A program made the translations under genes and the position numbers. Shown piece by piece: positions 10,273 to 12,449 of a DNA stretch of 12,449 nucleotides. This DNA comes from a virus, in the UHGV virus genome UHGV-0116345. The stretch is one strand, 5' to 3'. The stretch's first letter is position 1. Every line of letters begins with the position of its first letter. Under the pieces are notes generated by a model. The model had not been told where the DNA came from. It saw nothing but the letters and a program-made list of their open reading frames with translations, and made no database searches.

Positions 10273-10412
10273 ACAAAGCATTCGAACGATATATGCGCCA
10301 GCGTTATGGCAATCGCTATGACCTGACGCGAGATGTTGAAGGTTTCTACTGTAGTGAAATTGTGAAACGAATGTTTGAAGTTTGGTGTCATTGCAAAGGA
10401 TGGGAGGTCTGA
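10269..10412 (+). CDS. ylcG-like micro-ORF, 47 aa (MNKAFERYMRQRYGNRYDLTRDVEGFYCSEIVKRMFEVWCHCKGWEV)
   Basis: ATG 10269 overlaps the rusA stop (ATGA) and its stop TGA 10410-10412 overlaps the ATG of the Q-like gene (TGATG). This is tight translational coupling in the same arrangement as rusA-ylcG-quuD in DLP12 (recollection). Below the ORF-track length cut-off. Confidence 0.5.
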   Translation: MNKAFERYMRQRYGNRYDLTRDVEGFYCSEIVKRMFEVWCHCKGWEV

Positions 10413-11026
10413 TGCGGCTAACTCCAGTATTCAGCATGGTTAACTTCATTAATGACGCGCACTTTCGCCGCGTATGGAGACACCCGAAGAAAACCATCAA
10501 CTCTAGCCAGAAAGCATGGGTTCATTACATGTTACAGGTATGGGGCAAGGTTAATACCGGAGATTGCTCTCCAGGTGGTGCAATTAACGTTATCGGTCGT
10601 CTGATGATTCGCAGTCAGTGGAGCGATGACAAGGCTAAGCAGATAGAGTCTGTCGTCATGCGCCTGTACGAAGAAGATGGGCTGCGCGGAGATGAGCTAT
10701 ACAAGAAAGCTCGCGAACTGGTCATTCCTCAATCATCGTTTAGCCACATCATCACTCTCGCCAAAGAATCAGATGATGCGGCTTTCGTTGAACGTGTGAT
10801 GGTTAAAACGTTTCACCGTGAAAGCCCTGTCCGCGATGTAGCTATTAAGCGATATTGCAATCGCAATTGCACGCAAGATATAGCCAGGATTATTTCTTAT
10901 ATAACAGGTGCTGATATTCAGTATTGTCGTAAGCGAGTGGTGTGGTGTGAGAAAGTGCTGGAGTCAGAAATGTTTTATGCAATGAAACGAGAATTGGAGA
11001 AAGAATTTCCATTAATAGCGGCCTGA
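10412..11026 (+). CDS. Putative late-gene antiterminator (Q-like), 204 aa
   Basis: Position between rusA/ylcG and the lysis cassette, followed by a promoter-like region and intrinsic terminator (PR'/tR' architecture). Cys-containing C-terminal region (CNRNC...C...C). Start ATG 10412 with GGGAGG upstream (track ORF begins at TTG 10382). Not similar to lambda Q as recalled, so the family is unassigned. Confidence 0.5.
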   Translation: MRLTPVFSMVNFINDAHFRRVWRHPKKTINSSQKAWVHYMLQVWGKVNTGDCSPGGAINVIGRLMIRSQWSDDKAKQIESVVMRLYEEDGLRGDELYKKARELVIPQSSFSHIITLAKESDDAAFVERVMVKTFHRESPVRDVAIKRYCNRNCTQDIARIISYITGADIQYCRKRVVWCEKVLESEMFYAMKRELEKEFPLIAA

Positions 11027-11100
11027 ACTGAAATAATTTTGTAAATGCGTTGCTTCCGAGAAATGAAAGTGGTATTTTTTGTATATGCTCGGAGCAAAAG
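11027..11100 (+). promoter_or_regulatory. Candidate late promoter PR' / Q-utilisation region
   Basis: Candidate -35 TTGCTT / 17-nt spacer / -10 TATTTT around 11051-11084, immediately downstream of the Q-like gene and about 100-130 nt upstream of the terminator at 11185-11212. Hexamer assignment is tentative. Confidence 0.3.
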
Positions 11101-11184
11101 CGAACTGAGCAGTGAAATTGAAATCCTGATTTCCCCGGTCGTCGATAATATTTAGGGTCGACATACTGGCTAGATTAGGTAAGA

Positions 11185-11212
11185 GCCTCGGCAGAAACGT
11201 CGGGGCTTTTTT
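11185..11212 (+). terminator. Rho-independent terminator (tR'-like) ending a short PR'-proximal transcript (6S-RNA-like)
   Basis: Stem GCCUCGGC (11185-11192) / GUCGGGGC (11199-11206), 8 bp including two G-U pairs, 6-nt loop, followed by TTTTTT (11207-11212). Confidence 0.65.
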
Positions 11213-11542
11213 GTTTGCATAACAGGTAAGAGCATTGAACCCGCAGACCTCGCGGAATTGGTGAAAGGTGCCGCGCAGTGCTCTTATCGTTGTGGTGAAT
11301 GCGCAGGCTGATGCGCGAAAGACATTGCAGCTATTGCGGAAAAGAGCTGTTCGGCGGGGCAATTAAACGCCCGTGAGAGTCTGAAATAACCGCAAGCCGG
11401 AGATCAGCACCGGTCGCCACAATCCAAACTGAGCCGTAGCCACTGGCTGTCCTGAATTCATCAGTGATAGTTACGCTGCGGCCTTCTTTTTTCCCTTCCC
11501 AATATAAGAACTACGCAATCCGTTACTGGCGGAGGCGTTGCT

Positions 11543-11758
11543 ATGAAATCAATGGACAAAATCTCAACTGGCATTGCCTACGGCACCTCCGCAGGCAGTG
11601 CTGGCTACTGGTTTTTACAATGGCTTGATCAGGTTAGTCCGTCTCAGTGGGCTGCGATTGGTGTACTGGGAAGTCTGGTTCTGGGCTTTCTGACTTATCT
11701 GACGAATCTGTACTTCAAAATCAGAGAAGACAGAAGAAAGGCTGCGAGAGGAGAGTAA
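11543..11758 (+). CDS. S: Phage-21-type pinholin S with dual-start motif (Met1 antiholin / Met4 holin), 71 aa
   Basis: [71 protein letters not shown] matches the phage 21 S / DLP12 EssD class as recalled. Two TM segments and a charged C-terminus; M1-K-S-M4 dual start. Confidence 0.85.
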
Positions 11759-11762
11759 TATA

Positions 11763-12107
11763 ATGGTCCAAAACTATGAAATGATTGTGAAAGGGATCCG
11801 CAATTTTGAGAATAAAGTTACGGTAACTTTAGCATTACAGGACAAAGAACGCTTTGACGGTGAAATTTTTGACCTGGACATCTCGCTGGACCGTGTTGAA
11901 GGTGCCGCGCTGGAGTTTTATGAGGCAGCAGCCAGAAGGAGCATCAGACAGGTCTTCCTGGATGTTGCTGCCGGGTTATGTGGAGGGGATGAGCAGTCGC
12001 CGGAAAAGCGCCCCATAATTTTAGAGGCGCAGAGTGTGTGGATAACCTACAAAGGAAAACTGCCGGGAAGAATTACTGGTTCACTGAAGACTCCGCCGAA
12101 ATGGTAA
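11763..12107 (+). CDS. Hypothetical protein, 114 aa, directly downstream of the pinholin (position occupied by ydfR-type small genes or the endolysin in related prophages)
   Basis: ATG 11763 is 4 nt after the S stop, with GGAGAG upstream. Not an endolysin: no SAR/signal segment and no lysozyme motifs. Family not recognised. Confidence 0.5.
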   Translation: MVQNYEMIVKGIRNFENKVTVTLALQDKERFDGEIFDLDISLDRVEGAALEFYEAAARRSIRQVFLDVAAGLCGGDEQSPEKRPIILEAQSVWITYKGKLPGRITGSLKTPPKW

Positions 12108-12345
12108 TTTCACCAGCATATTTTTCCTCCAGTAATACCGCCAGCCACTTGAAAGAATTTTGTTGTTGCTGGGACCATTTGGGATTGATTGATTCAAGCT
12201 GGAGCGATGCCAGTGTTGGTTGCATTTGTTCCTTGGGAATTGAGAATGCCAGATATGAAAATGCGACAGTAAGGGCATTTACATCATCCCGAAGCCTGGA
12301 AATGCAGTCGAGCAACTCCTGTAGAGAAATGGTGCTATTGTCCAT
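12073..12345 (-). CDS. Hypothetical protein, 90 aa, antisense to the late operon (moron-like); convergent with the 114-aa gene and overlapping it by 35 bp
   Basis: Minus-strand ORF in track (TTG 12351); preferred start ATG 12343-12345 with AGAGAGGA 6 nt upstream. Candidate own promoter upstream (-10 TACAAT at 12360-12365, -35 TTGAAT at 12385-12390, 19-nt spacer). Q/E/L-rich, no TM segment. Confidence 0.45.
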   Translation of the reverse strand: MDNSTISLQELLDCISRLRDDVNALTVAFSYLAFSIPKEQMQPTLASLQLESINPKWSQQQQNSFKWLAVLLEEKYAGEITISAESSVNQ

Positions 12346-12449
12346 AAACAATCCTCTCTATTGTATTTAACTATTCCTTGCCTGATTCAACAGGCCGGGA
12401 CAGATAAACATATCCAGGGATTCGGAACCGATAAATCCTGATAAATATC

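Follow-up and report, generated by a model that had tools for sequence, protein, structure and literature searches.

The window analyzed here is a 12,449-nucleotide stretch of viral DNA, the UHGV virus genome UHGV-0116345. It carries near its end a small gene that runs against the late genes of a lambdoid phage. We refer to this 90-amino-acid (aa) antisense gene of the minus strand as ORF90. ORF90 is a real gene under purifying selection. We consider it probable, with appreciable room for doubt, that positions 12073-12439 of the minus strand form a self-contained accessory cassette, a moron, lying backwards between ydfR and the endolysin gene. Judged from alignments, the DNA upstream of ORF90 appears to be a degenerate member of a promoter and leader module found with many other small antisense prophage genes.

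ORF90 and its place among the lysis genes

The minus-strand open reading frame (ORF), its Shine-Dalgarno sequence (SD) and its 35-bp overlap with the 114-aa YdfR gene (12073-12107) had been described in an earlier note on this DNA, and all three are confirmed directly from the sequence (Table 1). A mechanical ORF list begins the gene at TTG 12351 (92 aa). The SD core GAGGAT shows no variation across 20 distinct upstream variants from homologous loci. Since the window contains 93 ORFs of at least 40 aa and a length of 90 aa alone is not beyond chance, the reality of ORF90 rests on conservation. The earlier note had made its gene depend on the same point, and ORF90 is conserved in PHROG 2411, in 172 homologous loci, in its substitution pattern and in distant relatives. 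The match to PHROG 2411 (E 3.5e-59) spans all 90 profile positions with residues 1-90. The exact protein is present on at least 999 contigs and bears the UniRef name Ybl58, and PGAP annotates it in homologous loci as 'hypothetical protein' (e.g. WP_000369848.1). The 308 bp specific to the module occur in 1221 of 5426 complete E. coli genomes (22%), including ST131 and BL21, whose copy is 98.7% identical, and also in E. albertii.

The 172 loci yielded 40 distinct alleles for assessing selection, the most divergent having 70-72% protein identity. The ratio of nonsynonymous to synonymous substitution (dN/dS) is 0.35 for the whole gene, 0.24 for the N-terminal half (residues 1-47) and 0.49 for the C-terminal half. 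Four out-of-frame controls gave 0.81-1.26. The first, second and third codon positions have 34, 30 and 61 variable sites, respectively. The gene is full length in 166 of the 172 loci and carries premature stops in four; among the 40 alleles six are broken, comprising four single nonsense alleles and two that end one codon early. A shadow ORF on the plus strand (12038-12370; 110 aa, GTG start, GAGG 6 nt upstream) has a dN/dS of 0.30. It imitates the low ratio of ORF90 because the third codon positions of the two frames coincide. A wobble-position test therefore cannot separate the strands, and the distinction rests on ORF integrity and distant homologues. The shadow ORF is stopped in 14 of the 40 alleles, as against six for ORF90.

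The AlphaFold2 model of ORF90 is a three-helix bundle (pLDDT 81) with residues 81-90 disordered, and the protein is acidic, with 11 D/E against 6 K/R counted from the sequence. A profile search of 1.8 billion representatives returned relatives of 81-97 aa with about 30-50% identity and the common motif ELLDxIxxLRxxVNxLxxAFSYLAFS...ESxN. Distant relatives lie antisense at other late-operon junctions, namely in the gpM/gpL gap (P0069) and upstream of terminase genes (P0067). Two others are chromosomal and outside recognizable prophages (L183 4001-4279 and L178 4001-4294); one is located between dinI and bssS in an enterobacterial genome, and one adjoins an oxidoreductase gene in a 6.4-Mb genome. 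ORF90 belongs to no family in Pfam, NCBIfam or PADLOC, and PADLOC gave no match at E up to 0.1 for either ORF90 or YdfR. Divergent ORF90 homologues used as queries against viral contigs returned nothing, and nothing relevant was found in the literature on ydfR, DUF1327, DUF1883 or Ybl58. Small moron products have established roles in lysogens of the exclusion, anti-defense and host modulation type. By analogy, the best guess is that ORF90 may be a cytoplasmic binder or inhibitor serving the lysogen, for example in superinfection exclusion, anti-defense or host modulation.

The site of ORF90 differs in content between related prophages. In K-12 Qin the order is essQ-ydfR-rrrQ without an antisense gene, ydfR and rrrQ overlap by 4 bp, and homology to the window stops at 11968. 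Stx2 phage 86 has the order holin, 268-aa YdfR, an unrelated 104-aa antisense gene and R, and its homology to the window by pairwise BLAST stops at 12098 and restarts at 12407. Loci L168-170 have lost 220 bp of ydfR and retain ORF90. As is characteristic of a moron, the gene is thus absent (Qin) or replaced (Stx2-86) between homologous flanks, and in L168-170 it persists although ydfR is lost. Base composition also differs from that of the neighbors by a small margin. GC content is 0.435-0.45 over ORF90 (about 0.44) versus 0.50-0.54 in ydfR and upstream, so that the lower-GC patch of the earlier note is present as a modest dip only. Presence and absence and cargo swap give strong support to the note's proposal of an accessory, moron-like gene directed against the late operon, and purifying selection and antisense relatives support it as well.

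The left junction (12098/12099) falls inside both ORF90 and ydfR. YdfR, at 114 aa, is truncated and extends by two codons (K-W) into the module. On the other strand, antisense ydfR-derived DNA supplies the last approximately eight ORF90 codons (12076-12098), which encode the variable, disordered tail. Because both ORFs read through the junction to the first stop, the preferred interpretation of the 35-bp overlap is a by-product of recombination, not a designed antisense device. Antisense transcription into ydfR and the holin gene is nevertheless possible, because no terminator follows ORF90. YdfR proteins in general have a conserved N-terminal part of about 70-110 aa and very different C-termini, with total lengths of 103, 114 and 268 aa, and the C-terminal variants diverge at junctions. 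Loci of this DUF1327 family are found in the window (11763-12107), L310 (2888-3148), L003 (1286-2092) and L005 (4555-4866). DUF1327 recurs as the convergent late-strand partner in the window type, Stx2-86, ES18 gene 24 and L274, in lysis operons or between tail genes M and L. As an obligate cassette partner it was rejected, being present in only one of ten further convergent neighbors.

At the right edge the next late-strand gene in homologous E. coli prophages is the lysozyme gene R, with its ATG at window position 12451. R starts 2 nt beyond the end of the match in L001 and L002, and the window ends 1 nt short of the ATG. A plus-strand endolysin gene spanning the interval of ORF90, a case that the earlier note had named as refuting its reading, is excluded by this start beyond the window end. 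The 43 bp directly upstream of R are 100% identical to the R-upstream DNA of several Stx1a/Stx2a phages and of Stx2 phage 86. At 12420-12426 the window reads TTCGGAA, and a GTTCAGA-type sequence is present in almost all of the other 171 ORF90 loci. This difference, together with the identical 43 bp, suggests a recombination junction right at the edge of the module. A direct repeat GATAAAT-N4-GATAAAT (12430-12449, plus strand) stands directly before the endolysin start, and R is without an obvious SD. Because 12430-12449 is also the promoter-proximal part of the antisense module, the translation-initiation region of R and the proposed cassette promoter overlap.

The promoter and leader module

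When the DNA upstream of the Stx2-86 antisense gene was aligned with that of ORF90 relatives, a conserved, cargo-independent element emerged. Genuine copies share about 125 nt. In the direction of the cargo they comprise a late-strand terminator-like hairpin, CTG-N9-CAGGAT, an invariant TAnnnT, the motif UCAGCC, two hairpins (HP2 and HP3), the SD and the cargo ATG. TAnnnT stands 6-7 nt upstream of UCAGCC; neither of these nor GGAUGGCUGAUUA varies among 45 diverse cassettes. HP2 consists of CGUCAGUG-GUGGGA-CACUGGCG and variants, and HP3 has a 12-nt loop with the invariant sequence GAUGGCUGAUUA.

Covariation provides evidence for the structure of the leader. Across 54 sequences, six of the eight HP2 pairs have compensatory double changes, and 95% of cells are paired. 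None of 500 shuffles reaches the observed HP2 score, and slid controls give 0.03-0.06 compared with 0.20; overall, they remain 3-8 times below the observed covariation. A wider model-fitted set of 38 sequences, which is biased towards the structure used for fitting, shows covariation in 7/8 HP2 pairs and 5/6 HP3 pairs. Compensatory changes in HP3 are found overall in two to five of six pairs. In addition, UCAGCC is perfectly complementary to GGCUGA within the HP3 loop. This long-range pairing (P1) is selected both by RNAalifold and by single-sequence folding, and it is beyond a covariation test because both of its strands are invariant. P1 may represent a pseudoknot or an alternative conformer. 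Short-form leaders in Xenorhabdus, Photorhabdus and Providencia are without HP2 and keep UCAGCC and HP3. At two positions G.U is the commonest state, and the structure therefore fits an RNA made from the cargo strand only.

The module is widespread in prophages of enteric bacteria and precedes many different genes. A 17-nt pattern from the leader, AGGRATGGCTGATTAMC, matches at least 120 stretches in IMG/VR, some tens of which are by our own estimate possibly chance. By BLAST the leader is present in at least 521 of the 5426 E. coli genomes, and among the matches listed none overlaps an annotated feature. A covariance model of the leader built in this analysis (R1) has matches at E < 1e-3 among GTDB representative genomes only in Enterobacterales, in the genera Enterobacter, Pseudocitrobacter, Dryocola, Pantoea, Serratia, Yersinia, Xenorhabdus, Photorhabdus and Providencia. 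The families covered are Enterobacteriaceae, Erwiniaceae, Yersiniaceae and Morganellaceae. The pattern also has matches in other phyla; these are without a significant model match and are probably chance. The K-12 prophages DLP12, e14, Rac and Qin were scanned and contain no leader. Canonical copies occur in cultured phages, as in the leaders of ES18 gene 25 (112 bits) and mEp043 gp70 (105 bits). Rfam 15 at its gathering threshold has no match in the window or in the canonical leader loci, a permissive search gave chance-level sub-threshold matches only, and nothing was found in the literature for the leader sequence strings. At the 5' edge of the ES18 cassette, the late-strand terminator hairpin (L310 2445-2516) has a sub-threshold Rfam match to Salmonella isrD (21 bits versus a gathering score of 37, E 0.045), which is probably a resemblance between terminators only.

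The genes behind the leader encode 82 distinct proteins of 63-210 aa, mostly 63-99 aa, which BLAST groups into at least 21 clusters. Almost all are without a Pfam family, the exceptions being DUF1883 and a weak Lar-like zinc ribbon. Comparing the ORF90 family with the remaining cargo clusters by hhalign yielded a single weak link (42% probability), and the cargo families are here treated as unrelated. Among 75 cassettes whose two flanks could be evaluated, 67 run antisense to both flanking genes and a single one is co-oriented; the window cassette opposes both ydfR and R. Cassette neighbors include tape-measure, gpM, gpL, gpJ, holin, endolysin and terminase genes, and relatives are also placed upstream of a holin. 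A terminator-like hairpin follows the cargo in 19 of 89 cassettes (21%), compared with 10 of 445 shuffles. A conserved structured leader linking ORF90 to many antisense prophage cassettes appears to be undescribed. We propose tentatively, and at rather less than even confidence, that the module is an undescribed cis-regulatory class, in which a portable promoter and a pseudoknotted 5' leader put dozens of fast-evolving small genes, the ORF90 family among them, under common control.

The probable copy in the window is, by alignment, much reduced. R1 matches at the same position in every ORF90 locus with 17.5-27 bits, as compared with 57 bits for the Stx2-86 gp06 leader and 103-123 bits for canonical copies. 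The window leader keeps the promoter-proximal part (TATCAGGAT, CCCTGG and TATGTT) and a shortened HP2. At the positions of UCAGCC and GGAUGGCUGAUUA it has UGUCCC and GGAAUAGUUAAAUAC, which are not complementary, and the arms of HP3 are lost.

This alignment bears on where transcription would begin. A sigma-70 promoter made of TTGAAT (12385-12390) and TACAAT had been proposed in the earlier note. Both hexamers are present on the minus strand with a spacer of 19 nt. Because the window leader aligns with the module, the supposed -35 is seen to be the loop of the residual hairpin, and the supposed -10 lies in the degenerated HP3 region. Both hexamers vary among the 172 loci, with GACAAT in 38 and TTGAAT altered in divergent alleles, and it is the SD and the upstream block GATATGTTT that are invariant. 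TACAAT is separated from the SD by 1 nt, and transcription starting approximately 7 nt downstream of it would remove the SD; TACAAT is probably not a promoter element. With its long spacer, its -10 abutting the SD, its unconserved hexamers and its position in leader hairpins, this promoter is probably wrong. The best candidate -10 is TATGTT, from which a transcription start near 12400 and a 5' untranslated region of about 55 nt are predicted. Other regulators were considered by eye. A LexA, CRP or FNR site is unsupported, the spacing of the upstream partial palindrome CTG-N9-CAG being one base off. A sigma-54 site (TGG...GC elements) and a sigma-28 site (TAAAGT...GCCCGTCA) misfit in spacing and are likewise unsupported.

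Expression in the lysogen and competing explanations

The proposed mechanism, read from the sequence, is as follows. In the lysogen, when the Q-dependent late operon is silent, host RNA polymerase would start at the TATGTT box. The mRNA would have its untranslated region of approximately 55 nt with the small hairpin first, and the 90-aa protein would be translated from the SD GAGAGGA. The transcript would probably continue in antisense into ydfR and the holin gene. Once the prophage is induced, heavy opposing transcription by antiterminated polymerase would shut the cassette off by collision.

Several observations weigh against a functional moron of this kind. No terminator-like hairpin is present within 130 nt after the ORF90 stop or up to the holin, so that the window holds no terminator of the cassette's own, unlike a classical moron. 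A consensus scan of the minus strand, with spacers of 16-18 nt, found no sigma-70-like site here or in two longer homologous loci, and TTTATC is a poor -35, matching TTGACA at 3/6 positions. The leader is without the UCAGCC/GGCUGA pairing and HP3 and reaches only 20 bits (E 0.039), and the window cassette may therefore be decaying or have little expression. At 0.35, dN/dS indicates no more than moderate constraint, and the ratio alone cannot choose the strand. Nonsense alleles exist, and in some genomes ORF90 is frameshifted. Recurrent 94-aa variants (P0046, P0050, P0051, P0059 and P0064) are frameshifted in the C-terminal half; some are from complete genomes of 3-5 Mb and represent several member sequences. 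These variants indicate pseudogenization in some lineages, as expected for cryptic prophages. Finally, structure and family searches with ORF90 yield no functional lead.

Some of these points could be accounted for by decay. The gene would then be an intact relic behind a leader that has lost its pseudoknot strand and HP3, expressed weakly or not at all, and drifting towards a pseudogene in mostly cryptic prophages. The low R1 score of the window against canonical copies, the missing P1 and HP3, the frameshifted and nonsense alleles in complete genomes and the dN/dS of the C-terminal half all favor such a relic. We nevertheless regard it as unlikely. The degenerate leader form is itself conserved over ORF90 alleles that differ by up to approximately 28% in protein. 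The TATGTT box and the SD are invariant, the N-terminal half has the lower dN/dS, and nearly all loci (166/172) are full length. The module is moreover carried by 22% of complete E. coli genomes and by E. albertii.

Somewhat less likely still is that the product is the RNA. An unterminated minus-strand antisense RNA, or a transcriptional roadblock, would act against ydfR and the pinholin gene and damp leaky expression of lysis genes, with the ORF being secondary. The stretch from the ORF90 stop to the holin start without a terminator-like site is consistent with this, as are the convergent overlap with ydfR and the antisense placement of the cassette family (67/75). Against it, the codon-position pattern and the conservation of ORF length show selection at the protein level. 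The ORF90 family is found also at other junctions and at chromosomal non-phage sites, where there is no lysis gene downstream, and a fifth of the cassettes (21%) have a terminator right behind the cargo.

The promoter of the earlier note, if real, would give an mRNA with a very short leader or none. It matches the consensus at 4/6 and 5/6 positions and lies directly upstream of ORF90. However, its spacer is 19 nt, and a start 6-8 nt past the -10 deletes the conserved SD and leaves a leader of approximately 8 nt, so that the mRNA is neither leaderless nor led by an SD. Given also the GACAAT of 38 loci, the variable TTGAAT and the alignment of the region to transcribed canonical leader, we assign this promoter a low probability. 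That ORF90 is a chance or shadow frame, the real feature being the plus-strand ORF or non-coding DNA, is very improbable: the plus-strand ORF shares third positions with ORF90 and has the low dN/dS of 0.30, but it is interrupted in 14 of 40 distinct sequences, whereas ORF90 has relatives kept as ORFs of 81-97 aa in unrelated DNA contexts, a conserved SD, a confident helical fold and PHROG membership.

Locus context and relation to known systems

The window is a lambdoid (pro)phage segment with an S24-type cI repressor, cII, an O replication protein, a primase-helicase, a KilAC antirepressor and RusA. The late or lysis region then begins with an S21-type class II holin, followed by the DUF1327/YdfR gene. 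The holin gene is the first gene of the lysis cassette, and the antisense module is inserted into that cassette. A further antisense ORF (11012-11362, minus strand; 116 aa, TTG start) lies between a 214-aa ORF (10382-11026) and the holin gene. It has no Pfam match and no match to the leader model, and it may be chance or another accessory gene. Near the immunity region, two genes share the strand of cI: 80-763 and 1474-2226 on the minus strand encode a protein with a full Nmad5 domain (nucleotide modification associated domain 5, E 6e-71) and one with DUF1828. Each is a candidate for an accessory or defense function expressed by the prophage.

Table 1. Coordinates of the features discussed (window positions unless a locus is named).
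Feature	Position	Strand	Basis
S21-type class II holin (pinholin family)	11543-11758	+	Pfam Phage_holin_2_1, E 8.6e-36; annotation of homologous loci
YdfR/DUF1327 protein, 114 aa	11763-12107	+	Pfam DUF1327, E 1.9e-42
ORF90 coding sequence (PHROG 2411 / 'Ybl58'), 90 aa	12073-12345	-	ATG 12345-12343, TAA 12075-12073
Module-specific DNA, absent from Stx2 phage 86	12099-12406	-	Pairwise BLAST and Stx2-86 annotation
SD GAGAGGA, 6 nt before the ORF90 ATG	12352-12358	-	Read from sequence
Degenerate promoter/leader module, R1 match	12359-12439	-	cmsearch, 20 bits, E 0.039 (103-kb search)
TACAAT, earlier proposed as -10, in degenerated HP3 remnant, 1 nt from SD	12360-12365	-	Aligned to canonical leaders
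Hairpin GCCUG-UUGAAU-CAGGC, shortened HP2 counterpart; loop TTGAAT earlier proposed as -35	12380-12395	-	RNA fold and covariance-model alignment
Proposed -10 TATGTT (TAnnnT)	12407-12412	-	Invariant in all ORF90 loci and, as TAnnnT, in 45/45 cassettes
Stretch directly upstream of R, 43 bp; other strand is the promoter-proximal part of the antisense module	12407-12449	+	
Weak candidate -35 TTTATC, 17 nt upstream of TATGTT	12430-12435	-	Read from sequence
Conserved motif TATCAGGAT adjoining TTTATC	12435-12443	-	Conserved in cassette alignments A4/A5
Example leader loci	L310 (ES18) 2446-2607; L174 3856-4011; L305 5080-5205		Alignments A4-A6

Lambda bor and lom are examples of morons. Like lambdoid morons, the window cassette is an extra gene between conserved late-operon neighbors that is present, absent or replaced and has a slightly different base composition. 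It is oriented against the late operon, as is bor, and expression of ORF90 in the prophage may be presumed by analogy. It differs in having no terminator of its own and a promoter that is predicted. The structured leader common to many unrelated cargos is likewise not part of the classical description. The moron concept itself goes back to Juhala et al. 2000 on HK97 and HK022, as cited in PMC4104026.

The closest parallel in arrangement is found in Salmonella phage ES18. Its GenBank record describes gene 25, which converges on the DUF1327 gene 24 between gpM and gpL, as 'possible moron; function unknown'. In both phages a late-strand DUF1327 gene converges on a small antisense gene preceded by the leader. 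The ES18 cassette is located among tail genes, whereas that of the window is located among lysis genes, and the two cargos are unrelated by BLAST or hhalign. ES18 has the full leader and annotated terminators, in contrast to the degenerate leader and unterminated cassette of the window.

Conserved structured RNAs at fixed positions in lambdoid late regions, some of them convergent, have been described as the AgvB/AsxR anti-sRNAs (small RNAs, sRNAs) and PasA-D (PMC4104026; bioRxiv 10.64898/2026.05.13.724894). The window-type leader is similarly a conserved, structured and unannotated RNA element in lambdoid prophage late regions. Those RNAs are free-standing sRNAs of 50-100 nt downstream of pR' and upstream of the holin gene, whereas the leader is the 5' part of a transcript fused to a protein cargo. 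An identity of the leader with AgvB/AsxR or a Pas sRNA was rejected by position, and the AgvB/AsxR Rfam models have no match.

ORF90 as a gene is already catalogued and uncharacterized. It is a full-length member of PHROG 2411, and its exact sequence is public in UniRef ('Ybl58') and PGAP; these entries record its existence only, and Pfam, NCBIfam and PADLOC have no family for it. The novelty lies in the context of ORF90 and not in the gene alone, since small prophage genes of at least 21 unrelated families have one leader in common. The leader helps annotators to recognize real small genes, and copies are carried by phages that are tractable as models (ES18, mEp043 and mEp213) and by BL21, a common laboratory strain. 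It offers one handle on the expression and silencing of morons, on their backward placement in late operons, and on the use of the cargo to the lysogen. If the module is a cis-regulatory class, common control of its cargos could be exerted by one factor of host or phage, or by an RNA switch, and the obligatory antisense placement would tie their expression to lysogeny.

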